From an uncultured bacterium (GTDB lineage Bacteria; Krumholzibacteriota; Krumholzibacteriia; LZORAL124-64-63), in NCBI GenBank assembly GCA_937910695.1, contig CALEMW010000233.1, positions 3,677 to 67,676 on the forward strand: 64,000 nucleotides of DNA. The letters run 5' to 3'. Each line of letters starts with the position of its first letter. Position 1 is the first letter of the stretch. The translations under genes were made by a program, and so were the position numbers. This document shows, piece by piece, positions 46,322 through 63,380 of the stretch. The notes below the pieces were generated by a model that was not told the origin of the DNA, searched no databases, and saw only the letters and a list, made by a program, of their open reading frames with translations.

Positions 46322-46323
46322 CC

Positions 46324-46804: not shown

Positions 46805-47407
46805 CTAGTTACTCGAGATTCGGATCACCTTGTTGCCGATGTCTTCCTGCCCAAGCAGCTTCCACTCCGTCTTCGCTTCGCCGCCGACCATCGTGGTGAC
46901 CGGCACTGCGTAGAAGAATTGGGTGCAGGATACTGTGATCGTACCTGCATCATGGTGAAAAATGAACACCACATCATAGAATCCACGCTTTGCACCGGCA
47001 ATGGCTCCGAAATCCGAATGTGAAGCTGAAACAGGTTGCCATGATTCCAAGGGCAGAATCTTGTCAACATCGACGGACCTGATCCCGGAGTTGGTCGAAC
47101 CGGGATCGGGATTCGTCGGCGGATTGCCCGAGAACATGTTTTCGGTGATCCGCACTTCGGTCGCGTAGTCGTGGTCGGTCCCATCGTTGTAGTAGAACTT
47201 GAATCGGGTGTCGAGCAACGCCGTATAGGATTCGTCGTCCAACCTCGTGTAGCTCGTAGAGAAATTCTGCATCAGCTTCTCGGCGGTGCTCGCAAAAATC
47301 TGTCCGGTGTCGGATGGTGGCGGGGCAACGGAGTCGTCGCTGCAACCGGTGCCCAACACGAGGATCATCAAACCGAGAAGAAGGATGGGGATTCTTTGGA
47401 TCTGCAT
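46805..47407 (-). CDS. Secreted lipoprotein, paralog 1 of a 3-gene tandem family
   Basis: Lipobox LGTGCSDD. Shared family motifs FSGNPPTNP, GIRSV, HSDFG, FHHDAGTITVS, QFFYAVPV and TEWKLLGQED. Lacks the C-terminal tail motif of paralogs 2 and 3. Confidence 0.6.
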   Translation of the reverse strand: MQIQRIPILLLGLMILVLGTGCSDDSVAPPPSDTGQIFASTAEKLMQNFSTSYTRLDDESYTALLDTRFKFYYNDGTDHDYATEVRITENMFSGNPPTNPDPGSTNSGIRSVDVDKILPLESWQPVSASHSDFGAIAGAKRGFYDVVFIFHHDAGTITVSCTQFFYAVPVTTMVGGEAKTEWKLLGQEDIGNKVIRISSN

Positions 47408-47537: not shown

Positions 47538-48161
47538 CTACCGGAACAGACTCTTCAATTCACTCCAGCTCAAGTCTTCGTCGCTCGCCTTGACTGCAAC
47601 GTCTTCCTGACCGAGCAACTTCCACTCCGTGATCGTCGCACCGCCGACCAGGCGCTCGACCGGTACAGCATAGAAAAGCTGGCCACTGCTGATCGTGATC
47701 GTTCCCGCATCATGGTGGAAGATCACGAATATTTCGAAGTAGCCTCTCATCGCACCGGGGATCGAACCGAAATCTGCATGGGCGACATCGACCGGCGCCC
47801 AGGCCCCCTGTATTCTCAGCATGTCGAATTCGATCGATCTGATCCCCTGATGCCATGAATAGGGAGGCGGATTCGTCGGCGGGTTGCCGGAAAATATATT
47901 CCCGATGATCCGCTGTTCCGCGTCGTAATCGTGATCTTCGCCATCGGTATAAAAGAAGCGAAAACGTGAGTCGAGGAGATCGCGGTACTTCGCTCCATCC
48001 ATATCTGCGTACGACGCAACGAAGAAAGCCATCAGCTCCTCGACGGTTTCGGCCTGAGTGTCGATGACCGGAGCGGGCTTGGTCGTATCGTCGCTGCATC
48101 CGATCAGGACGAACATGAGCGCCAAAGTGAAGAACAACGAGAAGGGACGCACCAATTTCAT
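47538..48161 (-). CDS. Secreted lipoprotein, paralog 2
   Basis: Start at MKLVRPF and lipobox LIGCSDD. Same internal motifs. C-terminus ...DEDLSWSELKSLFR. Confidence 0.6.
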   Translation of the reverse strand: MKLVRPFSLFFTLALMFVLIGCSDDTTKPAPVIDTQAETVEELMAFFVASYADMDGAKYRDLLDSRFRFFYTDGEDHDYDAEQRIIGNIFSGNPPTNPPPYSWHQGIRSIEFDMLRIQGAWAPVDVAHADFGSIPGAMRGYFEIFVIFHHDAGTITISSGQLFYAVPVERLVGGATITEWKLLGQEDVAVKASDEDLSWSELKSLFR

Positions 48162-48213
48162 GCTTTGCTCCGTCGACTTGAATGATATCCGCTTCCTGGA
48201 TGGCGGCTCTGCA

Positions 48214-48843
48214 TCATGGTCGGAAGAGGAACTTGAGACCACTCCAGCTCATGTCTTCGTTGCCCGCCTTGAGTTCCACGTCCTCCTGACCGAGCATTTT
48301 CCACTCCGTTTTGGAAACGCCGTCCGCAACGACGGTCACAGGTACGGCATAGAAAAACTGGTGCGTATTCACCGTGATGTTGCCGGAATCATGCAGGAAC
48401 TTCATGTGAGTATCGAAAAACCCGCGCCTGGCTCCTGCGACGCCACCAAAATCGGGATGGGATTCCGAGACTTCCACCCAAGGCTCCAGCAGAGAACAAC
48501 GAACCACCTCTACGGATCTGATTCCTGCGGCCGTACTGCCAGGTGCCGGGTTGGTCGGCGGATTGCCGGAGAACATCGCTTCGATGATGCGGATCTCGGT
48601 CACCGCGTTGTGGTTCGCCGATTCCACATCATAAAATCGATACCGGGAATCGATCATGTCCCGATATTCCACGGCATCGAGTTCCCCGTAGGCTCGCGCG
48701 AAGTTCTCCATCAGGACATCAGCGGAATCTGCAAACGGGAATCCGTCACAGCACGACGAAAGCGGCTCGACGGAATCATCGCTGCAGCCGATAAGCAGAG
48801 CCAAAACGATGAGTGCCAGAATACGAAGACGATATTGAGGCAT
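48214..48843 (-). CDS. Secreted lipoprotein, paralog 3
   Basis: Lipobox LIGCSDD. Same internal motifs. C-terminus ...NEDMSWSGLKFLFRP. Confidence 0.6.
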   Translation of the reverse strand: MPQYRLRILALIVLALLIGCSDDSVEPLSSCCDGFPFADSADVLMENFARAYGELDAVEYRDMIDSRYRFYDVESANHNAVTEIRIIEAMFSGNPPTNPAPGSTAAGIRSVEVVRCSLLEPWVEVSESHPDFGGVAGARRGFFDTHMKFLHDSGNITVNTHQFFYAVPVTVVADGVSKTEWKMLGQEDVELKAGNEDMSWSGLKFLFRP

Positions 48844-48980
48844 GGGAATCTCCCAGGGCAGCGATCTGGCTTGAAATCTCGAATCCGGAATCGACGATCC
48901 GCGCCACTATCCAATGACTCCATGAAACACCATGTTCAAGTGTTGTGTCAAGAGGCCGTCCGAATTTCATGTCCCCCAAC

Positions 48981-49015
48981 GAAAAAGAGGGCCACGGCAA
49001 TTGCCGCGGCCCTCT
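48981..49015 (-). terminator. Rho-independent terminator downstream of tRNA-Arg
   Basis: Minus strand shows AGAGGGCCGCGGCAAUUGCCGUGGCCCUCU followed by UUUUUCG. Confidence 0.6.
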
Positions 49016-49021
49016 TCAAAA

Positions 49022-49098
49022 TGGTACGCCCAGGAGGATTCGAACCCCCAACCTCCTGGTCCGTAGCCAGACGCTCTATCCAATTGAGCTATGGGCGC
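49022..49098 (-). tRNA. tRNA-Arg (anticodon ACG)
   Basis: GCGCCCAUAGCUCAAUUGGAUAGAGCGUCUGGCUACGGACCAGGAGGUUGGGGGUUCGAAUCCUCCUGGGCGUACCA. Anticodon loop CUACGGA. G1:U72 wobble noted. Confidence 0.8.
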
Positions 49099-49117
49099 AC
49101 CTATTCAGTTTTCTTGC

Positions 49118-49205
49118 TGGCGGAGAGGGAGGGATTCGAACCCTCGTTGAGTTGCCCCAAACACGCTTAGCAGGCGTGCGCCTTCAGCCACTCGGCCACC
49201 TCTCC
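49118..49205 (-). tRNA. tRNA-Ser (anticodon GCU)
   Basis: GGAGAGGUGGCCGAGUGGCUGAAGGCGCACGCCUGCUAAGCGUG...GGGUUCGAAUCCCUCCCUCUCCGCCA. Class II. Confidence 0.85.
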
Positions 49206-49216
49206 GCCGAAATCGC

Positions 49217-49302
49217 TGGCGGAGGGCGGGGGACTCGAACCCCCAAGGGATCGCTCCCGGCGGTTTTCAAGACCGCTGCGTTACCAATTACGCTAGCCCT
49301 CC
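49217..49302 (-). tRNA. tRNA-Ser (anticodon UGA)
   Basis: GGAGGGCUAGCGUAAUUGGUAACGCAGCGGUCUUGAAAACCGCCGGGAGCGAUCCCUUGGGGGUUCGAGUCCCCCGCCCUCCGCCA. Anticodon loop CUUGAAA, so UGA (Ser) and not the UCA of tRNA-Sec. Confidence 0.85.
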
Positions 49303-49365
49303 GACGCCGCTGACGTCGAGGGCCACCCGAGGGGGTAACGCTCCCAATTGCCGCGGCGATGCACG

Positions 49366-51231
49366 TTAATCCTTACGCTTCAGTTTGTCAAGCCAGCCCT
49401 GGACGCCGCCGCTGACGGCGTTCTGCAGTCGATTCTGTGCCGCACTGAGATCCAGTGCGACGGTCGGTCTCGCGGCTCTGCCGGTCAGCCCGAGATCCAG
49501 CGCCAAACGGCCATCCTCTCCCCTGAGCGATTCGGCGAGCATGGTCATCGCCCCGAGCTCCGGACGGAATTCCCGCGGAAACTTGATGTTCAGCCCCAGG
49601 TCGATAGCGCCGTCGAGCCCGATCCAGCCGTCGCCGGTCCAGTCGGTGTCGTGCCCGACGAGGTTCAGATCCTCGATGATGTAGCGCCCCTCGCGGACCT
49701 TCATCAAGTGGCTCAAGGTGTGGAAGCGGACCTCCTTGAGATCCTGACGATCCCCCAGATAGCGGCTGATGCCGTCGAGCCAGGCGCTGGCGTGGACCAC
49801 GCCCTCCTGCAGGATCCCTTCGCCGTCGAGGGTCAGCGACGAGCGCAGGGCCTCCGGCTCGCCCAGCCGGAAACCGCCGACGATCTTGCCGTCGAGGCCG
49901 CCCTCGAGATACGGAGCCGCCGAAGGCACGACGGTCTCCAGGACGATCTTCGTGGGCAGGTCGTGCATCTCGGCATCCAGGCTGACCAGGGCGTCCGGGG
50001 CGCCGAGAGGAGCCATGGTCATCGTACCGTCGAGGTGTCCGGCACCGATGTCCACACGGCTCTGCGAAACCGTCAGCGCGCCGCCTTCGATGGCGGCCAC
50101 GGCCTGCACGCGCCAGGGCGTCGTCATGTCCGGTGGTGTGAATTCCGCTTGGTCGAGGGTGATCACGGCGTCGAGGCCTTGCAGATGATCCGCCGGCGTG
50201 GCGTCGGACGCCGGCGGCAGCAGCGCCGTGTAGGTTCCCGAGGCGACCAGGCCTTCGATGTTGATCGGGGCCGTCTTCAACCACGTCGTCCAAGGCTCCA
50301 CGAGGGCTGGGTTCAGCTGCGGTACGGCTTTCTGCACGGCGTCGGCGTCGAGGTCGGCGAGGCGCCACTGCAGGTTCAGGCGGAAGTCTCCGGCCTCGCC
50401 GCGCACGGATCCTTGACCCTCGAAACGGGTCCCGCCCCAGGTCACAGCCACATCGGTGAGTTCGACGAGGTCGGCGGCTGCGCCGATCGTCGCGGTGGCC
50501 GCGAACCCCACGTCGGACAGCGAGGTCGTAAATTCGGGCTGGAAGCCGATCAATTCGAGGACGTCGATGCGACCCTCGAGTCCCACCAGTGAAGGATCGC
50601 CGCTCTCAAGCAGGGGCGAGCCCTGTCCGAAGGCGGTCAGGCGTCTACCCAGCACGGCGACGTCGTCGAGCACGGCATCCTGACGCCAACCGGCGATGTT
50701 CACAGAGCGCCCGGTGCCCTCCTCGCGCCAGGTCAGTGCGCCGTCGCGCACCGACACACCCGCGAGGATGACGGCCATCGGCGACGCCTCCGCAGTTCCG
50801 ACAACTGCGGCGGCCGTCGAGGACTCAGGTTCCGGCGCCCGCGTGACCAAGGTCACTTCGGGATGATCGAGAACCAGGCGGTCCAGCTCGATGCGCTTCT
50901 TGAACAGTGGTCCCCAAGCCAGGCCGGCGGTGGCGCGCAGCACGCCGACATGCACAGACACCAACGGGCCGACATCCGTATCCTGGGCGGCCGCCATATC
51001 CTCGCCCGTGAGAGCTACGGTCAGGCCGTCGATCGTCAGCGCTGCACGGGGCCAGAGGTCCAGGCCCACTGGCCCGTATGTCACTTCGGCTCCCGTCTCG
51101 GCCAGGAGTCGGTCGGCGGCCAAGGCGGCCAGCTTCTCCGCAGGGAACAAGGCCTTCAGCACAAGGCCGCCCACGGTCAGCACGGCGACCGTGACAACCA
51201 AGACGATCAGCAGTCTTCGTCCCTTGCTCAT
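49366..51231 (-). CDS. AsmA-family outer-membrane biogenesis protein
   Basis: N-terminal TM anchor followed by a long beta-rich periplasmic domain (AsmA-like). Confidence 0.7.
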   Translation of the reverse strand: MSKGRRLLIVLVVTVAVLTVGGLVLKALFPAEKLAALAADRLLAETGAEVTYGPVGLDLWPRAALTIDGLTVALTGEDMAAAQDTDVGPLVSVHVGVLRATAGLAWGPLFKKRIELDRLVLDHPEVTLVTRAPEPESSTAAAVVGTAEASPMAVILAGVSVRDGALTWREEGTGRSVNIAGWRQDAVLDDVAVLGRRLTAFGQGSPLLESGDPSLVGLEGRIDVLELIGFQPEFTTSLSDVGFAATATIGAAADLVELTDVAVTWGGTRFEGQGSVRGEAGDFRLNLQWRLADLDADAVQKAVPQLNPALVEPWTTWLKTAPINIEGLVASGTYTALLPPASDATPADHLQGLDAVITLDQAEFTPPDMTTPWRVQAVAAIEGGALTVSQSRVDIGAGHLDGTMTMAPLGAPDALVSLDAEMHDLPTKIVLETVVPSAAPYLEGGLDGKIVGGFRLGEPEALRSSLTLDGEGILQEGVVHASAWLDGISRYLGDRQDLKEVRFHTLSHLMKVREGRYIIEDLNLVGHDTDWTGDGWIGLDGAIDLGLNIKFPREFRPELGAMTMLAESLRGEDGRLALDLGLTGRAARPTVALDLSAAQNRLQNAVSGGVQGWLDKLKRKD

Positions 51232-52391
51232 GATCCCTCCCCCGAATTCTGCTTATGCGCGGCGACGATCCTGCCGCCACCCAAGACTTCATCGTCCCGA
51301 TACAGAACCAGTGCCTGTCCGGGCGCCACACCCTCTGCGTCCACGGCGAGATCGATATCCAGGAATTCCCCCTGCACTCGCCAGGACGCCACCTGAACAC
51401 CGCCGTGCCCATGGCGCAACTGTGCCGTCAACCTGTCGGCCGCAGCGGTTGGCGGCTCCGCTGGGGCGATGTCCGGCGCCGTCCAGCGCCAATCGTCGCA
51501 GCGCACCGTATCCACCCTCAGTTCAGGCCGGCGTCCGATGATCACGGTGTTGGACGCCGTATCCAGCTCCAGAACGTAGAGCGGCGCCTCGGCCGCCACA
51601 CCAAGCCCCCGACGCTGGCCCACCGTGTAGTGTTCCAGACCACGATGCCGGCCGAGCACCATACCGCCGCGGTCGACGATGTCCCCCGGCGCCGAGGGTT
51701 GGTCCTCGAACAGAAATGACCGGTCGTCGTCGGGCACGAAGCAGATCTCTTGACTGTCGGGGGTCCGCGCCGAATCCAGGCCGAGCTCGGCGGCGGCGCG
51801 ACGCACCTCGTCCTTGGTCCACCAGCCCAACGGAAAGACGCTGCGGGTCAGAATTTCCGGGGCCACGCCGTGGAGGAAATAACTCTGGTCCTTGGTCCGA
51901 TCGAGTCCACGCAGCAAACGCACCCCCGGCTCGTCGTGCAGCACCCGTGCGTAATGTCCCGTGCCCACGTAGTCAAGGCCGAGCTGATCGGCACGGCGGG
52001 CCAACTCCGGGAATCTCACCCAGGTATTGCAGCCCACGCAGGGATTCGGTGTCCGTCCCGCTCGATATTCTGCGATGAAGGGATCGATGACATGGGAACG
52101 GAACGGCGTTTCGACGTTGCCCACCCAGTGCTTCACATCGAATCGGGCCGCCTGGCGTCGGGCCGAATCGATCGCCTCGAGGGAACAGCACGAGGAGGCG
52201 TCGTCGCCGCCGAAGGAACCGTCGCTGGTGCAGAAGTTCTTGAAGGTGACTGCGACCACATGGCAGCCCATGTGCTTCAGGAGCGCCAGGGCCACACTGC
52301 TGTCCACGCCCCCGCTTACGCCCAGCAACACGCCGCTGCCCTTAGGGACAGCGGCGCTCAGCTCCGCCGGGACTGGCAGCGGGAAATCCAT
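51228..52391 (-). CDS. mnmA: tRNA 2-thiouridine(34) synthase
   Basis: PP-loop GVSGGVDSSVA with catalytic Cys residues and a C-terminal beta-barrel. Confidence 0.9.
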   Translation of the reverse strand: MDFPLPVPAELSAAVPKGSGVLLGVSGGVDSSVALALLKHMGCHVVAVTFKNFCTSDGSFGGDDASSCCSLEAIDSARRQAARFDVKHWVGNVETPFRSHVIDPFIAEYRAGRTPNPCVGCNTWVRFPELARRADQLGLDYVGTGHYARVLHDEPGVRLLRGLDRTKDQSYFLHGVAPEILTRSVFPLGWWTKDEVRRAAAELGLDSARTPDSQEICFVPDDDRSFLFEDQPSAPGDIVDRGGMVLGRHRGLEHYTVGQRRGLGVAAEAPLYVLELDTASNTVIIGRRPELRVDTVRCDDWRWTAPDIAPAEPPTAAADRLTAQLRHGHGGVQVASWRVQGEFLDIDLAVDAEGVAPGQALVLYRDDEVLGGGRIVAAHKQNSGEGS

Positions 52392-52408
52392 GACGGTCCT
52401 CCGTCGAT

Positions 52409-53182
52409 TCAGTGCCCGCCCTGGGTGAGTTCGGCAGGGATCTCGCTGTTCATCAATTCCTCGATGACCTTGATGTTGTCGCGGGAGCGCTCACCGATGT
52501 CACCGTCGGGATCCGAATCGACAGCGGCCTCCCATTCCACCAGGGCCTCGCGGTACATGCGCGATTCGGCAAAGAGAATGGCCAGGTTGTAGTGGGCCAG
52601 GGCGCTCTCGGGATTGCTGTCGAGCACGGCCTTGAACTGTTCGATGGCCTCGGGGTACAGATGCCGGCGGAAGAAAAGAGAGCCCAGATTGCAGCGCGCC
52701 TTTTCATCCTCGGGAGCAAGCTCGATGGCGGTCGTGTACGCCTCGCGGGCCAGATCGATGGCCTGACGCGCCTGAGGAGTGCGACCGTCCGAGATGTCGT
52801 CCCAAATCAGGCCCATGTTCACCCAGGCTTCGACCATGGTGCTGTCGGCGGCGATGGCCGCTTCGAAGAACGTCACAGCCGAATCGAGCAGGGCGCTCTC
52901 CCCCGTGCGGGTCTCTGGTCCGGGAGGCACGTTTTCGTTCTGGGAACGCTCGTAATACATGTTGCCCAGTCCGTACCAGCCGAAGGCCTCATTGTCGGGG
53001 CCGGACGCCGCGAGTTCACGCAGGGCCGGCTCCCGTTCCTCGACGGGCATGGCGCGGTACTCCGCGAGGGCTTTTTCGACGGGACTCATCTGTTCGCCGT
53101 CGTTGCAGCCGACTATGACGCAGGCGGCGGCGACCAGAAGCAGGGCCGTCAGGACGATGCGGGTGCGAATCGAGTCGTTCAT
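52409..53182 (-). CDS. TPR-repeat lipoprotein (CpoB/YbgF-like position)
   Basis: Lipobox IVGCNDG and 4-5 TPR repeats. Confidence 0.65.
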   Translation of the reverse strand: MNDSIRTRIVLTALLLVAAACVIVGCNDGEQMSPVEKALAEYRAMPVEEREPALRELAASGPDNEAFGWYGLGNMYYERSQNENVPPGPETRTGESALLDSAVTFFEAAIAADSTMVEAWVNMGLIWDDISDGRTPQARQAIDLAREAYTTAIELAPEDEKARCNLGSLFFRRHLYPEAIEQFKAVLDSNPESALAHYNLAILFAESRMYREALVEWEAAVDSDPDGDIGERSRDNIKVIEELMNSEIPAELTQGGH

Positions 53183-53222
53183 GTTCTCGCTCTCCTGTAG
53201 AACTGGTTGTCGACGGGGTATT

Positions 53223-54461
53223 CTACCACCATTTTTCGAGGCCCGCCAGAGACAGGGTCAACCGCCAGGCCCGATCCTGGACACCATGGTCGTCGAGGCT
53301 GCCGGTCATGATGTAGGACATCGCCACATCCAAGTGTCCGCCCTGATTGCGCAATGGCACGCCCGTGCCCACACTGATCCGGCGCTCGTCGATGGTCTGG
53401 CCGTTGATGGTGTAGGGCAGACGCCGCAGGGAGGCGCCGGCGCGCAACGGCAGATTGTCACGGCCACCGCGGCGTTGGAACGCTTCGAGACGTTCGACGC
53501 CTGCGCTCAAGCACCAGGAATCGGTCATGATGCCCTCCCAATCAGGACGACCGGTAAACCCGCTGAACGCCTGGGACTCGTAATCGAAGCCGAACCGCCA
53601 ACGTTCGGTCACGCCGACAGCGGCCCCCACACCCCAATGGGCGGGTATGCGGACCTGGTAGTCGATCGTAACGTCGCCGGGAATGCCGTTCATGTCCCGG
53701 GTACGGGTCACGTCCCAATTGTGAGCCGTCGTGTAGGTCGCACCGATGTGCAGACTCTCGCTCAGGGACACCAAGGCCGAGACCGTGGAGGAAACCGAGT
53801 TCAACTGATCCTCGATCACTTCGGAATTCGTACGCAGCGGCAGCAGTCCATCGTCCGTGTTGTCGTAGAACCCTTCGGACAAGCGCTCCCTCAGCAGTCC
53901 GTTGACCAGATTCAGGCTGGCGCCCACGGCGAGACGATCGTCAAAGCGCCAGGCAACTCCCAGGGGGACCTCGAACTGGGTCCCCTCCCGCTGAAAAGTG
54001 CGCAGTCCGTCGATGTCCTCGGTCGCCCCGCCACCGTCTGGAATGGGCAGGGTGATGGAAAAATCCTCCACCCAGGAATACTGGGTGCCGCGCAGTGCCC
54101 GGAAGCCGACTGTGGCCACACCGCGTCCGCCGAGGAAAGGCAGTGCGGTCCGCAGACTCGGCGTTCGCACGTTGCTCGTCATGCGGCTTCCGCTTGCATC
54201 TTCAGCGACGGCACGTTCGCCGTAACCGCTCATGACCACCGCCAGCCGGGTCAGTCCGGGCAGCGAAGCCAGATTGTGGAAGGATGGTGTCAGGGTGTCG
54301 CGTTCGGCCAGGCCCCAGCCCCCGCGCCCGTCGACACGGGCGTCGCTGGAACGCAGGTCGACGCCGATGTTCGTCAGGGCAAAGGGATTCTGTGCCGAAG
54401 CTGTGACGGCGGCGATCAGGACCGTCAACACGACGGCCGCTACGGAGCGGCGGCGGAGCAT
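53223..54461 (-). CDS. Putative outer-membrane beta-barrel protein (family unresolved, FadL/OmpP1-like size)
   Basis: Signal peptide MLRRRSVAAVVLTVLIAAVTASAQ, alternating beta-pattern and C-terminus ...LAGLEKWW. ATG overlaps the upstream stop by 1 nt (TGATG). Confidence 0.5.
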   Translation of the reverse strand: MLRRRSVAAVVLTVLIAAVTASAQNPFALTNIGVDLRSSDARVDGRGGWGLAERDTLTPSFHNLASLPGLTRLAVVMSGYGERAVAEDASGSRMTSNVRTPSLRTALPFLGGRGVATVGFRALRGTQYSWVEDFSITLPIPDGGGATEDIDGLRTFQREGTQFEVPLGVAWRFDDRLAVGASLNLVNGLLRERLSEGFYDNTDDGLLPLRTNSEVIEDQLNSVSSTVSALVSLSESLHIGATYTTAHNWDVTRTRDMNGIPGDVTIDYQVRIPAHWGVGAAVGVTERWRFGFDYESQAFSGFTGRPDWEGIMTDSWCLSAGVERLEAFQRRGGRDNLPLRAGASLRRLPYTINGQTIDERRISVGTGVPLRNQGGHLDVAMSYIMTGSLDDHGVQDRAWRLTLSLAGLEKWW

Positions 54462-55855
54462 CACTGGCCTCCCGAGAAGATGGTGTAGGTGACCTCGAGA
54501 TAGGGGGCGAAGTCCGGATCGCCCGTGCCCAGGAATTGGAAACGCGTCAGATAGAATTCCGGGTCCCACAGCACGACGTCGTAGTTGGAAAACACATCCT
54601 CGCCCGCCGTGAGGATCAGGCACGTCTCATCTTCGGTCACACCATTCACATGGCGCTGAATCGCAGAAGTCACGTTGAAGCCCACCCAGGGGCGCTGCTC
54701 CGCCGCGATGTAGGTCGGATCGAGGTTGGTCTGGCCGGAGATCACCGACACGGCGTCCTCGAGATCGGCAAGCTGGAGGGTGTCGACGCCGCTGACCGCA
54801 GCGAGGGCGATTTCACTGACCACCGCTGCCTCGAGCGGCCCGTACCCCGCCAGCGTGTCCATGGCGCAGCGCAGGATGGCCCGGTTGATCAGGATGTTGT
54901 CCGGCAATGCGTCCAGGTTGAAGCGCAGCCAAGGATAGCGGCGGAAATGGGTGCGGAGCATGAAACCGTCGGTAAAGGTGTCTCCTGGCTCGTCGAGCTG
55001 ATGGAAGGTCGAAACGTCCTTCGTGGCGGGGAACACGATGACGTGTTCGATGTCGTCGCTGTCGGTGATCGTGACCGAGACGGTTACGCCCACCGTCGTG
55101 CCGGCCAGAGCCCGGGGATGCTGGCTGTTGAGCTGGAGGTCGCGCGAGGCATAGCCGATGAGGCCCTCCTCGGACGAGGCGCCGGCTCTGATCATCAGGT
55201 CGGCGCGGCCCGTCTCCCACCAGTCGATGAAATCGCCTTCGGGGATGTTGATGGAGATGACCTCGCCGCCGTCGTCTTCCGAGGTGATGAAGTCGGCGGT
55301 GGCCGGCTCGATTCCTGGATACGCCGATGTCGCGAGGGTGTCGGCCAAGGACCAGATCTCGAAGTTCTTCCAGCCAGGGAAAATCTCCTTCGTCGCATCC
55401 GAGTCGTCATCATCCTGGCCGACGTCGGCGTAGCCGAGCGTTCGGTAAAGGTACATCGTGACACTGGTGATCGTCGAAGGACTGATCGTCACGTCGGCCC
55501 CGACACTGTCCTGCAACCCTGAGAAATCGTAGCTCAGCAGAATGGAAGAGGCTTCGTCCCCCTTGAAACCCAGATAAAGCACTTCGCTCAGGTCGAACGG
55601 GTGATCATCGTCCACGATGGTCACGGTGCCTTGGTTCTCCAGGAACTTCATCGTGACCAAGGTGGGATCGATCAGGTCGAGCTCGGGTGGAATCACCGTT
55701 CCGACCGGATTGCTCTGATCGCTCGTACAGCCGGCGAAGATGCCGAGGCCAAGGGCCAGGGCGGCGGCCGTCAGCACCGCGCACCGGACTCCCCGGCCGT
55801 TGATTTCCAGGACTCTGTTCAGCATTCCTTCTCCTCGATCGCGATAGGCCCACAT
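54461..55855 (-). CDS. Hypothetical lipoprotein (464 aa)
   Basis: Signal peptide plus Cys (LGIFAGCTSDQ). No recognisable family. Confidence 0.5.
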   Translation of the reverse strand: MWAYRDRGEGMLNRVLEINGRGVRCAVLTAAALALGLGIFAGCTSDQSNPVGTVIPPELDLIDPTLVTMKFLENQGTVTIVDDDHPFDLSEVLYLGFKGDEASSILLSYDFSGLQDSVGADVTISPSTITSVTMYLYRTLGYADVGQDDDDSDATKEIFPGWKNFEIWSLADTLATSAYPGIEPATADFITSEDDGGEVISINIPEGDFIDWWETGRADLMIRAGASSEEGLIGYASRDLQLNSQHPRALAGTTVGVTVSVTITDSDDIEHVIVFPATKDVSTFHQLDEPGDTFTDGFMLRTHFRRYPWLRFNLDALPDNILINRAILRCAMDTLAGYGPLEAAVVSEIALAAVSGVDTLQLADLEDAVSVISGQTNLDPTYIAAEQRPWVGFNVTSAIQRHVNGVTEDETCLILTAGEDVFSNYDVVLWDPEFYLTRFQFLGTGDPDFAPYLEVTYTIFSGGQ

Positions 55856-55892
55856 GCGAGCGGGCGGATCTTAGGCGGCGGGCAGCGGTGCG

Positions 55893-56339
55893 TCAAGGCG
55901 CGCCGGGGCCGTCGTCGGCAACGTTGTCGGTGGCGGGGGCGTCCTTGCGTGCGGCCAGGCTCACCCGGTGGAATCCGCTTTCCTTGATCAGATCCATCAG
56001 ATGGACAACACGGCCGTGACGGCTGTCCTGATCGGCCCTCAATACGATGCGGTCGTCACCCTTGCTAGCCAACAGCTGCCGTAAAGTCGGCAGGATTTCC
56101 TCGTCGGACAGCAGACGGCCCTCGAGATAGACGGCGCCCGCAGCGGTCAGGTAGAGGGTCGCCGGTCCTTCTTCCATAGCTTGGACCGTACTCGACGACG
56201 GCAGGTCGAGATTGATGGCGGGCTGTTGCTTGAAGGTCGATGAGACCAGCACGAAGATCAACAGCAGGAACATCACATCGATCAGCGACGTGACGTTGAT
56301 GATCACCCGACGTCCTTGCCGCGGCGGTGCAAACCGCAT
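55893..56339 (-). CDS. exbD: Biopolymer transport protein ExbD/TolR
   Basis: INVTSLIDVMFLLLIFVLV single TM and a periplasmic domain. Confidence 0.85.
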   Translation of the reverse strand: MRFAPPRQGRRVIINVTSLIDVMFLLLIFVLVSSTFKQQPAINLDLPSSSTVQAMEEGPATLYLTAAGAVYLEGRLLSDEEILPTLRQLLASKGDDRIVLRADQDSRHGRVVHLMDLIKESGFHRVSLAARKDAPATDNVADDGPGAP

Positions 56340-56968
56340 TACGCCTCCTCCCCGGCCGCCTCGGCGCGGCGGCGACGCAAAGAATCGAGGAGCTTGGAAG
56401 CATACTGCTCAAGCTCGAAGATGATGCCGTCGGCGCGTCCTTGCAACCAATGGTACGCGACAAGGGCCGGAATACCGATGATCAGTCCCGCAGCTGTGGT
56501 GATCATGGCCTCGGAAATCCCCCCCGAAAGGACCTCGGGCTGTCCCAGGCCGGCGGTGCTGACGACGCGGAACACCCGGATCATGCCCGTCACCGTGCCG
56601 AGCAGTCCCAGCAGCGGCGCGACGGCGGCCACCGTCTCGAGGATGTTCAGGTTGCGTGACAGGCGCACCGCCTCCTGGCGGCCGGATTCCTGCAGCACGT
56701 CGCGCACGATCTCCCAGTCGGCGTCGGCGTGGTCCAGCCCTGCGCGCACGACGTTGGCGAACGGTCCGGGCCGTCGGTCGAGGATGGCGTAGGCGACGCC
56801 GAAGTCGCGCCCGGCGCCGAGGGTTTCGACCGCCTGGGCCACTTCGGGGTAGACGATCTGCCCGCGCCGCAACGCGAACAGCCGCTCGAGAAAGATCGCG
56901 AGCCCTACCAAGGAGCATACTCCCAGGGGAATCATCATCACGTTACCGGATCGGATCAGTTCCCACAT
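56339..56968 (-). CDS. exbB: MotA/TolQ/ExbB proton-channel protein
   Basis: Three TM helices and the conserved C-terminal region GLLGTVTGMIRVF. Confidence 0.85.
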   Translation of the reverse strand: MWELIRSGNVMMIPLGVCSLVGLAIFLERLFALRRGQIVYPEVAQAVETLGAGRDFGVAYAILDRRPGPFANVVRAGLDHADADWEIVRDVLQESGRQEAVRLSRNLNILETVAAVAPLLGLLGTVTGMIRVFRVVSTAGLGQPEVLSGGISEAMITTAAGLIIGIPALVAYHWLQGRADGIIFELEQYASKLLDSLRRRRAEAAGEEA

Positions 56969-57001
56969 GCGGGTTCATCCCTTCGTCGTCGTGAGTTCGG
57001 G

Positions 57002-58162
57002 TCATTGCTGGGGACTCTGTGGCCGACGGCGTCGCCCCGGAGTCTGCTCTTGTGGACGCGCTGGGCGCTGCATCTCCTCGAGCGTCGGATACAGGAGCCC
57101 AAGTTCGAGGACCAGGTCCTCTTCAGGAAAATCGGGAGGCAGAGGTGCAAAGGGCGCCGCACCATGCAGGGCGGCAATGCTGGCTTGGTGCAAAGACGGA
57201 TGCCCCTGCTCGTCCAGGACATCCAGGCTCCCGATGGTGCCGTCTTGCTCCACCACGAGCCGCATGACGGTCTTGCCGTCGATCACGCCCAAGCGGTAGG
57301 CATAGGGTGGAATCCAATGAGGCAGGAAGTCCTGCTTGAAACGCTCGAGCCAGGGGGCGAAGTCCCACGACAGGGTGTTGAGGCGGAATTCGCCGAATTG
57401 AATCATGTTGCCGGCACTGCTGCTGACTGCGAGCTGGTCGTAGTCGAAGCCCGGATCGCCGCTCCGGCTCGTTCCCTCGGCGAGGATCGAAGGGCGGTTC
57501 GAGGGAAAGAGGTCAAAATTGTCCGGCGACGTCGCAGCCGTCGCAGACTCATCGTGATCGGACACTTCGTCCGGCTTCGCCTCGTCATTCCCAACGGTCG
57601 ATTCACCTGTCTGCTCTTCAGGAGCCTCGTTGCTCTGTTGCGCTCGGGCGAGGTCATGATCGCCGTCTTCGGGCGTTTCCCCTTCACCGGTCCGGAATTC
57701 CGGTGAACGGATCAGGGCGATCCCTCCCTCGGTCGCCGCGGAGTTCGCCTGGATCGCCACCTGTTCGATTTCCGAGGTGCGCTCCGCCCCCGGCGCACTG
57801 TTTTCCGTACCACCTTCAAGCTCGTCGGCGGCGAGGCTGTTGTGCATGGCCAGGAAATCCGCCCGCGCAGGCGGCGCCTCAACAGCCTGGCGCTCGGGGA
57901 TGCTGGTAAACTCAGTGGGTCTTCCGGGATCCTGTTCGTCTGCGACATCCGGCTCGAAGACGATCTCGATGACATCGTCGGGGCGCACCTTCGGAGTTCG
58001 TGCTTTCTCGACGCCGAACAGATCCACGCCCCATGTCGCCGCCCCGAACCCCAGGTGGAGCAGCAGGGAGGCCAGCAGGGCCAGGATGATGGGACGACGA
58101 CTGGACACGGTTCTCCTTGACGATGGAGGACGCCGACCGGATTCTGTGCGAACGTTTCGCAA
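57002..58162 (-). CDS. TonB/TolA-like energy transducer (TonB C-terminal domain)
   Basis: N-terminal TM (IILALLASLLLHLGFG), a long acidic/Pro linker and a C-terminal TonB fold (YRLGVIDGKTVMRLVVEQDGTIGSLDVLDEQGHPSLHQASIAAL). Confidence 0.65.
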   Translation of the reverse strand: MRNVRTESGRRPPSSRRTVSSRRPIILALLASLLLHLGFGAATWGVDLFGVEKARTPKVRPDDVIEIVFEPDVADEQDPGRPTEFTSIPERQAVEAPPARADFLAMHNSLAADELEGGTENSAPGAERTSEIEQVAIQANSAATEGGIALIRSPEFRTGEGETPEDGDHDLARAQQSNEAPEEQTGESTVGNDEAKPDEVSDHDESATAATSPDNFDLFPSNRPSILAEGTSRSGDPGFDYDQLAVSSSAGNMIQFGEFRLNTLSWDFAPWLERFKQDFLPHWIPPYAYRLGVIDGKTVMRLVVEQDGTIGSLDVLDEQGHPSLHQASIAALHGAAPFAPLPPDFPEEDLVLELGLLYPTLEEMQRPARPQEQTPGRRRRPQSPQQ

Positions 58163-58189
58163 GGTCCGGAGTCACCCTCGGAGTAGTAC

Positions 58190-59188: not shown

Positions 59189-59260
59189 CACCGGCGGGCC
59201 AAGACCAGACTTTTAAAGCGATTGGCCCCATGTGAGGACAGCCTGACAGGAGCGGACCCT

Positions 59261-60190
59261 ATGCCCCGTAGTTTCACCGTCGCCTTCATCTGCGTGATCA
59301 TCATGATCGCAGGCACCGCCTTGTCCCAGACCGAAGGCGGCGCCGAAGTCCGGCCCGACGCTCAGGTCGACGAGCAGAACTTCAACCTCAAGCCAGGCGG
59401 AGGGGCCTCCGAGAGGATCGAGGACGTCGACGACGCGCCCGAGTACGAGCCCGTCATCCCGGTGAAGAACCTGGAAACGTCGGTCACGCTCGGCTTCTGG
59501 GGACTCGACATGCCCCTGATCGCTCACGATCTACTCATCTACAAGTACACCGATGAGTTCACCTACTTCGGCGATGTCGAGCTCCGCGGAGAATCCGCGT
59601 TCCACCCTCAGCTGCGGCTCAGCTACAACGCATCGACGTACCTCGCCATCGAGCCTTTCTTCGACGTCTCGGTCTCCGAGTACCAGTCGACGATCACCAA
59701 CCCCCAGCAGATCACCAACAGCACCGAAGGCGGTGTGCTCGAGCCCGTCGAGGAGCTCGGTGAATTCGACTACGAGAAGCGGTCGAACATCACGCTGGGC
59801 ACCGGCGTGAACATGTTGCTCTACCCCCACAACTACGGCAACTTCGGCAAGGGCAACTGGCATCCGTTCCTGATCGGCGGCCTGTCGAAGGTGTGGATGA
59901 GCATCAACTCGAACTACGTGGACGACGCCGCCAGCATGTGGCGATACTCCGGAGGCGCGGGCATCCGCTACGTCGCCGACGACATGATCAGCATCCGCTT
60001 CGAGATGATGTTCCACAAGATGACCTTCCAGTTCAATCCTTCGGACTCCTATAAGGAACTGGACGGCGGACTCATCAAGATTCCCGTCTACGAGTATGTC
60101 ATCGGCGAAGGCGAAAAGCCTGTGACCGAGTTCACAGAGCAATCGGTCAACACGATCAGCTGGGCCTTGGGCTTTACGGCCACCTTCTGA
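59261..60190 (+). CDS. Putative outer-membrane beta-barrel protein
   Basis: Signal peptide MPRSFTVAFICVIIMIAGTALSQ, amphipathic beta-strands and C-terminal ...ALGFTATF. Confidence 0.5.
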   Translation: MPRSFTVAFICVIIMIAGTALSQTEGGAEVRPDAQVDEQNFNLKPGGGASERIEDVDDAPEYEPVIPVKNLETSVTLGFWGLDMPLIAHDLLIYKYTDEFTYFGDVELRGESAFHPQLRLSYNASTYLAIEPFFDVSVSEYQSTITNPQQITNSTEGGVLEPVEELGEFDYEKRSNITLGTGVNMLLYPHNYGNFGKGNWHPFLIGGLSKVWMSINSNYVDDAASMWRYSGGAGIRYVADDMISIRFEMMFHKMTFQFNPSDSYKELDGGLIKIPVYEYVIGEGEKPVTEFTEQSVNTISWALGFTATF

Positions 60191-60224
60191 TCCCGAGCCG
60201 AACGAGCAGCGAGCGGGGCGGTCC

Positions 60225-61760
60225 TCAAAGGGCCGCCCCGCTCTGCGTCAAAGCCGCCTCGCGACGCCAGCCGAGAGCGCGGACGGCATCGCAACGGAGT
60301 GCCGTCGTGCGGCCTTCAAGGGCCGCAACTGTCCTCGCCACCCCCGCACAACGGATCAAGCTGCGGATCGAAAGTGCCATTCCCGTCCGCGCCCGATCCA
60401 GGATCTCTCTTGCCCCCTCGTCGAGATGGCGTCGGGCGAACAAGAGCTCCCCGGCACCGCGGACTGGATCCGCGTCGAGGATTCTGCGTGCCATGACGAC
60501 CCGGTCACGGGCCTCGACCGGGTTCCACTGGCCACCGGGATCGAAGGGCCCTCGGTTGTCCGGCAGGGTTTCGTCGAGTTCACAGAACAGATCGATGCGA
60601 TCGAGAAAAGGCCCCGACAACCTATCCCGATGACGGGCAACGGTCGCAGCGGAACAACTGCAGTGGCGCCGGCGGCTTCCGAGCCAACCACAGCGGCAGG
60701 GGTTCATGGCGGCGAGGAGCTGAAAATCCGCCGGCCATTCCCGGCTCCCTCCCCCTCGAACCACACTGATCCGGCGCTCCTCGAGCGGCTCACGCAGGGC
60801 ATCGAGGACGCCGTAGGCGAATTCCGTCAACTCGTCGAGGAACAGGACGCCGTGATGGGCCAGCGTCGCCTCACCCGGCTGCATACCGGCGCCCCCGCCA
60901 ACGAGCCCAGCTCGGGTGACACTGTGGTGAGGAGCCCGGAAGGGCCTTGGCGGGCGGCTCAGGCCACAGTTGAGATCGGCGTGGAACCCGAGAGTGCCGG
61001 AGATCCTCAGCACATCGATGGCGTCACGGGTGGTCATTTCGGGTTGCAGAACACCCACGGCTCGACAGAGGCGAGTTTTACCACTGCCGGGAGTACCGAC
61101 CAGCAGCATGTTGTGACGTCCGGCGGCCGCTGTCATTGCCAGATGGCGGGTATGGGAGTCGACAAGCCCCAGGAACGCATCGCCGGAACCACGCTCTGGA
61201 GGAAGACCGGGAAGGGGGCGACCTCCGGCCGACCAATTGGGAATCGACTCGCCGTCCAACCAGGACCCGACTTCCCGGAGAGTTTCTGCGCCAAGCACCT
61301 CGATACCCTCGACGAGACAGGCTTCGACGAGCTGTCGACGAGGGACGACGAAGCGTCGTCGCCCCCCCGCTGAGAGAGCCATCACAATGGCGAGGAGGCC
61401 CCGCACGGGCTCCACACCACCGGCCAAGGACAACTCGCCCAGAAAGACGACGTCGCGAAAGTCCGCCAAAGCACCGGAGCAGCCCCCCTGCCCCAGCACG
61501 CCGACGGCCACCGCCAGGTCCAAGGATGCTCCCTCTTTGCGAACCTCTGCCGGCGCCAGGTTGACGGTCACCCGACCCTTCGGCCACCCGAGTCCGCAGT
61601 TCCTCACCGCGCTCATGACCCGTTCACGGCTCTCGCGGACCGCGGTGTTGGGCAGACCGACGATCTGGAACGTGGGCAGCCCCCGCCCTGCATCGACTTC
61701 GACCCTGACCTCGTAGCCGTTGATCCCGTCGACGGCTCCCCCGAATACCATGACAACCAT
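60225..61760 (-). CDS. comM: YifB/ComM-family Mg-chelatase-like AAA+ ATPase
   Basis: N-terminal Lon-like domain, Walker A LLVGTPGSGKT, Walker B LFLDEL and zinc-finger-like C-terminal segments. True start MVVMVF... at 61760. Confidence 0.85.
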   Translation of the reverse strand: MVVMVFGGAVDGINGYEVRVEVDAGRGLPTFQIVGLPNTAVRESRERVMSAVRNCGLGWPKGRVTVNLAPAEVRKEGASLDLAVAVGVLGQGGCSGALADFRDVVFLGELSLAGGVEPVRGLLAIVMALSAGGRRRFVVPRRQLVEACLVEGIEVLGAETLREVGSWLDGESIPNWSAGGRPLPGLPPERGSGDAFLGLVDSHTRHLAMTAAAGRHNMLLVGTPGSGKTRLCRAVGVLQPEMTTRDAIDVLRISGTLGFHADLNCGLSRPPRPFRAPHHSVTRAGLVGGGAGMQPGEATLAHHGVLFLDELTEFAYGVLDALREPLEERRISVVRGGGSREWPADFQLLAAMNPCRCGWLGSRRRHCSCSAATVARHRDRLSGPFLDRIDLFCELDETLPDNRGPFDPGGQWNPVEARDRVVMARRILDADPVRGAGELLFARRHLDEGAREILDRARTGMALSIRSLIRCAGVARTVAALEGRTTALRCDAVRALGWRREAALTQSGAAL

Positions 61761-61896
61761 GCGCACCTCCTCGGCGCAGACATGCTCGAACCATGCCGAA
61801 CGCCCACCAGCGAGGATCGGGCATAGCGGGTCGTCAGCCTGCAGAACAGGTGCAGGCATGACATCGAAACAGGACGGGGCTGGAAACAGGTGTCAC

Positions 61897-61931
61897 CCAA
61901 CAAGAACGGGCCCCGCCGAAGCGGGGCCCGT
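61897..61931 (-). terminator. Rho-independent terminator after secreted-protein gene 61953-62657
   Basis: Perfect 11-bp stem ACGGGCCCCGC-UUCG-GCGGGGCCCGU followed by UUCUUGUUG on the minus strand. Confidence 0.55.
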
Positions 61932-61952
61932 CCACGGGGAGTCGGAACGGAA

Positions 61953-62657
61953 CTAGCGGAACATGGTCTTCAAATCGCCCCAGCTTGCATCGTCGTTGCC
62001 GGTGGGGTCGAAGGGGAAGATGATCTTGATGCCGAAGACCAGGTCGAAACCGGCCGGCACCGAGACAAAGAAACTGGGTTCGGCGATGCCCGTACCGGCG
62101 AAGGTCCAGCCTCCCATGGGAAATTCGAGGCCCAGAAGGTAGGCCAGCTCGGACCCTCCGTTCAGCACGCAGGTGCCGATGCCGGCGCCCGAGAAGCCGA
62201 AGCCGATGGGGTTGTCCAGAAGCATGTCCCAGTTCGGATCGACAGCGGCCTGCAGGAGCATCACGCCGTCGGTGAACGTCGCCTCGTTGGCATAGTTGGC
62301 CGCGGTGCCGCCGGCGATCGCATCTTCGTAGATCTCGATCACGGCGCCGTTGAACACATATTCCTTCATGCTCAGCCCGGGGGTGAACGTGAAGGCCGTG
62401 AGGGCCATGTTGACCACTCGGATCGTGTACTGGTTACTGGCGAAATCCATGGGCAGCGGGGTCGGAGCGCTCACCGGGGGGTTCGCGATGCCGAGCACCG
62501 TGTAGCTGGATCCGACGGTATCCTGGCCGAGAGTGCTTTTGGAAAAGCCCTCGAAGGTGAATTCGACCTGTCCCAGGACGGGAACGGCCGCGACGAGCAC
62601 CATTGCGGCAAGCGCGGTGCGGATCATGGTGCGAGTGTTGATCTGCTTCATCATCAT
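61953..62657 (-). CDS. Secreted hypothetical protein (beta-rich), paralog A
   Basis: Signal peptide MMMKQINTRTMIRTALAAMVLVAAVPVLGQ. C-terminus ...FPFDPTGNDDASWGDLKTMFR. Confidence 0.6.
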   Translation of the reverse strand: MMMKQINTRTMIRTALAAMVLVAAVPVLGQVEFTFEGFSKSTLGQDTVGSSYTVLGIANPPVSAPTPLPMDFASNQYTIRVVNMALTAFTFTPGLSMKEYVFNGAVIEIYEDAIAGGTAANYANEATFTDGVMLLQAAVDPNWDMLLDNPIGFGFSGAGIGTCVLNGGSELAYLLGLEFPMGGWTFAGTGIAEPSFFVSVPAGFDLVFGIKIIFPFDPTGNDDASWGDLKTMFR

Positions 62658-62672
62658 GCCCTCCTTCCGTTC

Positions 62673-63380
62673 CTAGCGGTACAGGTTCTTAAGGTTGCTG
62701 AACGTGGTGTCTTCGTTCGGGATCGTCGGGTCGTAGTAGATCGAGCCGTCGGCTTCGCAGTCATAGCCTTCGGGAATCGTGCTGTCGGCGCCCACGCCGA
62801 CGAGGCCCGCGATGGCCATGCCGTCGGGGTTGGCCAGCATGTCGCCCAGTTCACCGTAGTTGGTGCCCAGGGTGAAGGTGACCGCGCCCTGGTAGTTGCC
62901 GGAGAAGTTCGTGGTGTTGTAGGTCAACACGAACTGGGTGAACACGCCCGACAGATAGGCGTCGCCGTTGCTGAAACTGCCGATGGCGCCGGCGTCCGGA
63001 GGATCGACGCCGTAGAAAGGCATCGTGTAGCCGGGGTCGAGATACCGATCGGCGATGATGTCGATGGTGCCGCCGGTGTAGTAGACGCGGATCACGCCGC
63101 CTCCCAGATCGATCTGCCCCATCGAAACGAGGCCGTCGATGACCCAGGTGTACTCATAGTCGGCGGTGCTCCAGGTCAACGGATGGCTGATGTTGTCGAC
63201 GAAACCGATACCCGCCAGAACGTCGCCGGCATCGCTGGGCGGAAAGCCCGGTGTTCCCGGAGTGTTGTCCGACTCGTACATATAGCCGATGATGTTGAGG
63301 ACTTCGAAGCTCTGAGCCTGTGCGAGGCCGGTGGCCGAGCACAGCAGTGCGAAGCAAACGAGTAAGTTGAACTTCTTCAT
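62673..63380 (-). CDS. Secreted hypothetical protein (beta-rich), paralog B
   Basis: Start MKKFNLLVCFALLCSATGLAQAQ. C-terminus ...SIYYDPTIPNEDTTFSNLKNLYR. Confidence 0.6.
   Translation of the reverse strand: MKKFNLLVCFALLCSATGLAQAQSFEVLNIIGYMYESDNTPGTPGFPPSDAGDVLAGIGFVDNISHPLTWSTADYEYTWVIDGLVSMGQIDLGGGVIRVYYTGGTIDIIADRYLDPGYTMPFYGVDPPDAGAIGSFSNGDAYLSGVFTQFVLTYNTTNFSGNYQGAVTFTLGTNYGELGDMLANPDGMAIAGLVGVGADSTIPEGYDCEADGSIYYDPTIPNEDTTFSNLKNLYR

Follow-up and report, generated by a model that had tools for sequence, protein, structure and literature searches.

To our knowledge, the small C-terminal sorting signals of exported bacterial proteins described so far either span the membrane and serve a sortase-type enzyme or form a folded domain, as in type IX secretion systems (T9SS). 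The sortase-type signals are LPXTG with sortase, PEP-CTERM with exosortase, GlyGly-CTERM with rhombosortase and MYXO-CTERM with myxosortase. The T9SS type A C-terminal domain (CTD; TIGR04183/PF18962) is a beta-sandwich or beta-sheet of 45-100 residues with the motifs B, D (GxY) and E. Here we describe a C-terminal tail of about 16 residues, called the tag in the following, which ends four secreted proteins encoded in 64 kb of DNA from an uncultured bacterium (contig CALEMW010000233.1; the window is this whole stretch of 64,000 nucleotides). The tag is kin to the small C-terminal protein-sorting signals, without the membrane-spanning architecture which defines the known members. The reading we prefer, tentatively and with confidence just short of even, is that the tag docks or anchors its carriers at the envelope and is recognized there by one conserved envelope partner.

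The likeness to the sortase-type signals lies in the C-terminal site, the multiplicity and the signature residues, and also in the signal peptides of the carriers, their unrelatedness, the variability of their homologues and the presence of choice-of-anchor passengers. The name 'choice-of-anchor' is used in NCBIfam for families whose members bear differing C-terminal sorting signals depending on the lineage. The tag differs in that it has no transmembrane segment, no Arg cluster and no NCBIfam match, and in that it occasionally occurs in tandem or N-terminal copies. With neither the transmembrane segment nor the Arg cluster, it cannot be lodged in the membrane where an intramembrane or membrane-bound sortase would act on it. 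Haft compiled eight attributes of small C-terminal protein-sorting signals (bioRxiv 10.1101/2023.06.07.544157). Of these the tag has six: C-terminal location, several occurrences per genome, invariant signature residues, carriers with signal peptides, unrelated carriers, and homologues with no signal or a swapped one. The two absent attributes are the hydrophobic transmembrane segment in the middle of the signal and the terminal cluster of 2-5 basic residues. The last 16 residues of the tag hold about two acidic and two basic residues and no hydrophobic run, with a single terminal Arg plus Lys at position -5.

Literature searches with motif strings and with taxon names plus signal terms returned no description of the motif. 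Ten isolated tails gave no Pfam or NCBIfam match at E<=10, and a profile search of the PDB gave none at E<=10. An earlier sequence-only reading of the window had held the motif to be unlike PEP-CTERM, LPXTG, GlyGly-CTERM, T9SS CTDs and the beta-signal of outer-membrane proteins (OMPs); this agrees with the absence of a match to any Pfam or NCBIfam sorting-signal model and with the terminal Arg.

The tag in the window and in other genomes

The tagged genes, the tag copies and one untagged relative in the window are as follows, with the evidence in brackets where it was recorded (ORF, open reading frame).

46805-47407, minus strand: third lipoprotein paralogue, 200 aa, untagged, ends GQEDIGNKVIRISSN (alignment, downstream frames)
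47538-48161, minus strand: tagged lipoprotein, 207 aa, lipobox LIGC (ORF and translation)
47541-47588, minus strand: tag copy 1, ASDEDLSWSELKSLFR, then a TAG stop at 47538-47540 (translation, six-frame scan, DNA pattern)
48214-48843, minus strand: tagged lipoprotein paralogue, 209 aa, lipobox LIGC (ORF, paralogue alignment)
48217-48264, minus strand: tag copy 2, GNEDMSWSGLKFLFRP, then a TGA stop (translation, six-frame scan)
61953-62657, minus strand: tagged secreted protein, 234 aa, with signal peptide, AOC/dirigent-like beta-barrel, disordered linker and tag
61956-62003, minus strand: tag copy 3, TGNDDASWGDLKTMFR, then a TAG stop (translation, six-frame scan, DNA pattern)
62673-63380, minus strand: tagged secreted protein, 235 aa, signal peptide ...GLAQA
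62676-62723, minus strand: tag copy 4, IPNEDTTFSNLKNLYR, then a TAG stop (translation, six-frame scan)

Translation confirmed the four ORFs, their coordinates and their ends, and with them the earlier statement that four secreted proteins share a terminal motif. The window tags have the motif [DE]-D-x-[ST]-[WF]-[SG]-x-L-K-x-[LM]-[FY]-R, which a six-frame regular-expression scan found four times in the whole window, always at a stop codon and never internally. The degenerate DNA motif has two matches in the window, against 0.00 expected from 100 dinucleotide-preserving shuffles. Copy 4 has F at the W position, where its orthologues in two other loci (L103, L018) have W, and copy 2 has one additional residue, P, on the C-terminal side of Arg. 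The claim that the motif lies at the very end thus stands for three proteins and is off by this one residue for the protein at 48214. The tagged proteins of the window show lipoboxes or AxA-type sites. Neither Pfam nor NCBIfam gave a match for any of the five window proteins (the four tagged ones and 46805-47407).

To look beyond the window, a degenerate DNA pattern, GANGANNNNWSNTGGDSNNNNNTNAARNNNHTNTWYMGNTRR, was scanned in one genome per species, 185,579 species in all. At about 38 bits, which is a rough estimate, it should match by chance only a few times in 1.2e12 positions; it matched at least 120 genome blocks (loci), 803 kb. The listed 803 kb contain 160 tag-ending ORFs, so that the number is at least 160. 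Among the matches listed, 29 loci have two or more tag genes, one of them six, and the genome MAG173-P120 has at least eight tags over four 8-kb blocks. A HMMER search of 1.84 billion representative proteins with a profile (A6) built from the window tails and short fragments gave 76 matches at E<=1e-3. Recurrence outside the window had been suggested as a check on the tag, and both searches bear it out.

All carrier genomes are metagenome-assembled genomes (MAGs), and complete MAG chromosomes are among them (OZ244990.1, OZ244561.1, OZ220690.1, OZ244210.1 and JADJQR010000001.1). According to the record titles, the blocks among the matches listed come from Eisenbacteria/Eiseniibacteriota (21), Effluviviaceae (1), Krumholzibacteria(-ota) (19), 'Fibrobacteraceae' or 'Fibrobacter sp.' MAGs (13), Latescibacterota (5), Gemmatimonadota (4) and unclassified 'bacterium' MAGs (57), with no further named phylum. 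We suspect that the 'Fibrobacter' labels are doubtful; the ORF translations of L030 look G+C-rich. The taxon-named matches among those listed are all from candidate phyla in the Fibrobacteres-Chlorobi-Bacteroidetes (FCB) group. As far as the listed matches go, the tag is restricted to uncultured Eisenbacteria, Krumholzibacteria and related phyla. The idea of a lineage-specific tag holds to this extent; its breadth over several phyla, its longer consensus and its tandem and N-terminal copies had not been foreseen.

The logo of the tag reads [VT]-[PA]-[VT]-E-[ED]-[ST]-[ST]-W-G-x-[VI]-K-[AS]-[LM]-[YF]-R-COOH, which can be shortened for the ~16-residue tag to P-V-E-E-S-S-W-G-x-I-K-A-L-Y-R. It should be noted that the DNA pattern in part dictated positions -13, -12, -10, -9, -8, -5 and -1; it left positions -16 to -14, -6 and -4 unconstrained. 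The nearly invariant residues are E(-13), W(-9), G(-8), K(-5) and R(-1), several of them partly pattern-imposed.

Position, modularity and carriers of the tag

The stop codon follows the tag directly in 155 of 163 strict matches. With the loose motif W-[GSA]-x-[LIVM]-K-x-[LMIVF]-[FY], 169 of the 175 matches in the 803 kb lie at most four residues from a stop and only one is truly internal. The same holds for loose matches which the stop-containing DNA pattern had not picked out, 46 of 47 lying within ten residues of the stop, and the reversed translations of the loci contain no loose match. The 76 profile matches nearly all reach the last residue or end at most three residues from it; the exceptions are four proteins with tandem tags and two unrelated proteins with repeats. 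P0107 (925 aa), which looks phage tape-measure-like by sequence, has five tandem repeats of ...GWSALKALYRWSPLGVMQRGFG...; its score against the tag profile is probably a chance resemblance.

The lipoproteins and the proteins at 61953 and 62673 had been said to be alike in the tail alone, and indeed the BLASTP alignment of the 47538 lipoprotein with the 61953 protein is confined to the last 15 residues. Pairwise identity among the three lipoprotein paralogues is about 45-52% up to ...LLGQED, where two of them run into the tag. The third (46805-47407) shares about 52% of its residues with the other two as far as GQEDI, ends ...IGNKVIRISSN, and has no remnant of the tag 3' of its gene in any frame. 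This paralogue, rightly described earlier as lacking the motif, is a within-family control for modularity. The search for lipoprotein homologues gave only five matches; of the database homologues, P0046 and P0047 stop at GQEDI... without a tag and P0048 is tagged (...HWSDLKALFR). The 20 homologues of the 61953 protein (43-70% identity; an alignment of 21 rows including the window protein) keep the tag, with W226 nearly invariant, K230 invariant and R at the end of most rows. The conservation of W and K is found in the unselected alignment of 61953 orthologues too.

The proteins at 61953 and 62673 had also been treated as one family. Their genes are adjacent, but BLASTP aligns only the last 37 residues (E 0.002), and from the sequences a common family is not demonstrable. 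A 62673-like and a 61953-like gene, both tagged, form an adjacent pair in the window, L103 and L018, and in some genomes a pair of this type is flanked by M20 peptidase and ComM.

When the tails (the last 18 residues) were removed and the carriers clustered by single-linkage BLAST (E<1e-5), 143 carriers fell into 63 clusters. A C-terminal domain common to all carriers, which would have reduced the tag to paralogy, was not found, and the proposal of a modular tag is upheld. Judged by sequence, the tail is a modular, autonomous element and not a case of ordinary paralogy.

Some proteins have more than one tag, and the copy number within the lipoprotein family goes from 0 to 5. In the family of the window paralogues there are tandem tags in P0070 (four), P0073 (five), P0103 (two) and P0118 (two). 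P0052, P0060 and P0061 have a second tag directly after the signal peptide in addition to the terminal one, P0096 and P0111 have a degenerate second copy right after the signal peptide, and P0066 is built as domain-tag-domain-tag. Since such copies exist, the tag appears to be self-contained and without a strict need of a free C-terminus; they therefore argue against a strictly C-terminus-dependent mechanism.

A signal-peptide-like N-terminus was called with a simple heuristic in 111 of 129 carriers (86%) and in 146 of 438 other ORFs of the loci (33%; Fisher p=2e-27), so that the enrichment in signal-peptide proteins, for which the sequence-only reading had suggested a test, is found. About 15 carriers have lipobox-like sites. 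The median carrier has 240 aa, and half of the carriers have a Cys in the 17 residues upstream of the tag. A Pfam/NCBIfam scan of 71 representative carriers found no family common to all. The domains are scattered and of surface type: choice-of-anchor W, P, X and J, DVUA0089/FDP, LTD, CHRD, beta-helix/NosD-like, CBM20 with X25, PPC, Big_5 and TolB-like PD40. Proteins with a T9SS-type CTD (...GVYFxRL...TRKxVLLR) are present in 46 of the 120 listed loci and share passenger domains with seven tagged proteins. As an example, residues 27-551 of a tagged protein with a beta-helix passenger (L044:3666-5354, 563 aa) align to residues 396-935 of a 1038-aa protein which runs on into a T9SS CTD of about 100 aa. 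Because homologous passengers bear either one, the tag and the T9SS CTD are alternative C-terminal modules.

In the tag Arg is encoded by all six of its codons, Gly by four and Lys by both, and each of the three stops occurs; this synonymous variety points to selection on the peptide. The stop is TAG in 84 of 133 tag ORFs, compared with 155 of 398 other ORFs (Fisher p=2e-6); it is TAG in 34 of 85 other ORFs ending in Arg and in three of the four window tags. The bias may mean that tag and stop spread jointly as a 3' cassette.

Tags of unrelated families from the same genome are 0.50 identical over the 12 variable positions, against 0.375 between genomes, when one tag per genome and family is counted; none of 2000 label permutations reached this difference. 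In the window all four tags have Leu at -6, a position where V and I dominate globally and Leu occurs in 10 of 155 tags. Such similarity within genomes fits coevolution with one reader per genome.

AlphaFold gives the 61953 protein a confident 8-stranded barrel, with a predicted local distance difference test score (pLDDT) above 90 at residues ~30-215, followed by linker and tag with pLDDT below 50 and a short helix at 226-232. The model of the 47538 lipoprotein is a low-confidence alpha+beta structure (pLDDT 55) in which the stretch 188-207 stands apart and contains a short helix at 202-205; its poor quality is due to the few homologues and the shallow alignment. If the last 11 residues are taken to be helical, their hydrophobic moment comes to 0.46-0.48; for shuffles it is 0.32 +/- 0.15. 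In these models the tag is thus predicted to lie outside the fold, where it follows a disordered linker and forms a short helix of low confidence.

What the tag may do

The sequence-only reading had named secretion, attachment and protease recognition as possible roles. The docking reading can be put as follows. A carrier would be exported by Sec or made into a lipoprotein, and a flexible, often Cys-flanked linker would keep the tag at a distance from the folded domain. The final ~10 residues of the tag would form a short amphipathic helix, capped at its N-terminal side by the acidic P-V-E-E, and this helix would dock non-covalently on one conserved envelope component, probably a receptor protein, in these FCB-group bacteria. 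Docking would retain or sort otherwise soluble exoproteins at the envelope or the cell surface, and extra copies of the tag would raise avidity. The tag would then function like a docking or cargo-loading peptide, but outside the cytoplasm. Such peptides, i.e., those of encapsulins and microcompartments and the dockerin-cohesin pairs, may be the closest analogy for its mode of action: they too join unrelated cargo to one receptor by a short terminal peptide on a flexible linker, and cargo-loading peptides are usually C-terminal and sometimes N-terminal or repeated, as the tag is. The analogy has its limits. The cargo of encapsulins and microcompartments is cytoplasmic and encoded beside shell genes, whereas the carriers have signal peptides and no linked shell or scaffold gene (no shell gene was found in the window or the loci), and dockerins are folded modules of ~70 aa, unlike the tag.

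Several observations weigh against docking. When the 690 ORFs of the 120 loci were clustered, no partner gene recurred over independent contexts among them. A mere docking helix does not need the near-absolute stop after Arg, which would be easier to explain if a free C-terminus were read or threaded. The predicted helix is of low confidence, with a moment only about one standard deviation above shuffles. The extra copies are mostly within one protein family and could be non-functional duplications, and the similarity within genomes could be increased by recombination of tag cassettes within a genome, by shared ancestry or by composition. Some carriers are lipoproteins and already lipid-anchored, and a second anchor on these therefore calls for a bridging explanation.

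A wider proposal, on which our confidence is clearly below even, is that the tag is part of a new envelope sorting or docking system, which FCB candidate phyla other than Bacteroidota (Eisenbacteria, Krumholzibacteriota, Latescibacterota and their kin) would possess. In it a peptide of 16 residues with no membrane span and no fold of its own, usually C-terminal, would be recognized by a dedicated receptor or machine. In each genome the peptide would send dozens of unrelated proteins exported by Sec to the same place in the envelope, parallel to and distinct from the T9SS and exosortase-type systems.

The main rival, which we consider rather doubtful, sees the tag as an outer-membrane translocation signal, read in the periplasm by a T9SS-related route (barrels of the PorV/PorQ family) or by another system and perhaps then removed. 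The extreme C-terminal site with the stop right after Arg suits such a signal, the carriers are of typical surface or extracellular types, and the tag stands where homologous passengers have a T9SS CTD. Tag and CTD are alike in belonging to the FCB superphylum, in having Sec-exported surface-type carriers and a flexible linker, and in ending hydrophobic-hydrophobic-basic. T9SS CTD proteins and PorV/PorQ-family genes (L105, L073) occur in tag-bearing genomes. T9SS signals are moreover known to shrink, although the 3-stranded 'short CTDs' of Prevotella still have at least 45 aa (PMC11969387). The tag, at ~16 residues, is instead predicted to be helical and has none of the motifs B, D and E of the beta-sheet CTD. 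PF18962 and TIGR04183 match none of the 71 carriers or the ten isolated tails, and tag and CTD coexist in the same genomes as distinct classes. Tandem and N-terminal copies would be unexpected of a C-terminal threading signal, and PorV-family genes lie near tags in only two independent contexts. In the window no protein end resembles a T9SS CTD.

An unlikely alternative is that the helix needs no partner and inserts by itself into the interface of a membrane leaflet or the lipopolysaccharide layer, tethering the exported proteins peripherally. Amphipathic membrane anchors of this sort are the C-terminal helices of PBP5 and PBP6 and the membrane-targeting sequence of MinD. With these the tag shares a predicted terminal amphipathic helix of ~10 residues, basic flanks, an acidic lead-in and a soluble domain; its hydrophobic residues are at i, i+3, i+6 and i+7 with flanking Lys/Arg and interfacial Trp/Tyr, and the moment is above shuffles. 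Tandem copies would add avidity, just as duplication would raise binding by the known anchors, and the tag is tolerated at either end of the mature protein. The known helices are, however, single-family orthologous features with loose conservation, and the tag is near-identical over 63 families and covaries within genomes. Lipid-binding helices do not need E, W, G, K and R to be so tightly conserved over 63 families and several phyla, and the concerted variation within genomes points to a specific reader. In addition the helix is only ~10 residues long and its moment is modest, no obvious role in lipid binding can be given to the conserved acidic P-V-E-E and S/T-S/T segment, and MinD acts in the cytoplasm. 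Still less probable, in our view quite improbable, is a proteolysis or processing tag for a periplasmic C-terminal-processing or PDZ protease (S41/tricorn-like) or another peptidase, which would control abundance or maturation of the carriers. It would account for the C-terminal site and the invariant terminal Arg, and there is a tricorn-like protease gene in L118 and a CPBP/Rce1-like protease beside tagged lipoproteins in L087 and L105. These protease neighbours represent only one or two independent contexts each, the CPBP sorting proteases act on transmembrane signals, unlike the tag, and a terminal Arg is atypical for recognition by PDZ domains or Prc. We know of no precedent for an encoded degron on at least 60 surface-type families, sometimes in tandem. 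That there is nothing special about the tails, i.e., that paralogy, chance or a repeat or terminator element of the DNA lying over gene ends produced them, can be regarded as refuted. Two of the lipoproteins are true paralogues, and the over-use of TAG could hint at a spreading cassette of tag and stop, but only the tail aligns between families, the carriers form 63 clusters, no match is expected by chance in the window or seen in reversed translations, synonymous codons vary freely, and the DNA 3' of the four window tags is unrelated between the copies.

Other candidates were rejected. The OMP beta-signal read by BamA is also an extreme C-terminal motif on proteins past the inner membrane, but it ends in an aromatic residue closing the last barrel strand, and the tag ends in Arg, predicted outside the fold on a disordered linker; OMPs of the window end in F or W (59222-60190, ...FTATF; 53223-54623, ...EKWW). 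Most tags do not fit the Bacteroidetes O-glycosylation sequon D-[ST]-[AILVMT], and there is no real match to the TolB box or the TonB box. A released peptide like those that are ribosomally synthesized and post-translationally modified was discarded because the carriers are folded proteins of 200-560 aa, and a DNA-level repeat because synonymous codons vary.

Eisenbacteria, Krumholzibacteriota, Latescibacterota and their relatives are known from metagenomes only, and most of the proteins which they export carry the annotation 'hypothetical'. A recognizable tag which marks a class of envelope or surface proteins would improve the annotation of these secretomes, and a hidden Markov model of it could enter Pfam or NCBIfam. 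It would also be a handle for finding its reading machinery through phylogenetic profiling, and it could serve as a compact targeting tag in engineering. A soluble sorting-like peptide of 16 residues would widen what is known of post-Sec addressing in bacteria with two membranes.

Neighbouring genes and the rest of the window

Neighbours which recur beside tag genes are YceG, an extracytoplasmic function (ECF) sigma factor with a zf-HC2 anti-sigma factor, a sulfatase-TPR protein, ABC transporters, a PD40-containing cluster (one tricorn S41 protease), PorV-like proteins and a CPBP protease, each tracing to one or two orthologous contexts. The PorV/PorQ-family genes are in L105 (barrel L105:4393-5544) and L073, two independent contexts. 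The CPBP/Rce1-like intramembrane protease (L087:1696-2817, L105:658-1710) adjoins tagged genes of the lipoprotein family in a single orthologous context and has weak matches to the myxosortase-type models MrtS and MrtJ. The protease gene with PD40, PDZ and S41 tricorn-like parts belongs to a single tag locus, L118, and this domain content is that of the L118 protein; its BLAST cluster has four further members, which are shorter (~330-390 aa). In L015, L025 and L101 an ECF sigma factor and a zf-HC2 anti-sigma factor adjoin tandem tagged paralogues with CBM20/X25-like N-termini, which hints at regulated expression of this tagged family.

The window itself is housekeeping DNA with the tag genes scattered in it. 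Its genes include the NikR-CbiM operon, an AsmA/GspN-like gene, MnmA, a BamG-like barrel, ExbBD-TonB, MurB and ComM. The features between the two groups of tag genes and at the untagged lipoprotein gene are these.

44354-46743: nickel/cobalt uptake operon with CbiM-like permease, small membrane protein, ABC ATPase and NikR-type regulator, converging on the untagged lipoprotein gene
49022-49302, minus strand: tRNA genes Arg-ACG, Ser-GCT and Ser-TGA, immediately upstream of the lipoprotein array
49366-51231, minus strand: 621-aa protein with one N-terminal hydrophobic segment; weak match to Leptospira-type GspN of the type II secretion system, E 1.4e-8, below cutoff
52409-58162, minus strand: operon-like run, made up of the six genes below
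52409-53182, minus strand: TPR lipoprotein
53223-54461, minus strand: FadL-like barrel; NCBIfam BamG end to end, E 1e-28 but below cutoff
54461-55825, minus strand: 454-aa lipoprotein, weak DNRLRE-domain match
55893-56339, minus strand: ExbD
56339-56968, minus strand: ExbB
57002-58162, minus strand: TonB-like

The 621-aa protein at 49366-51231 looks AsmA-like. The run at 52409-58162 could be a Bacteroidota-style accessory module of the beta-barrel assembly machinery (BAM) beside a Ton motor.

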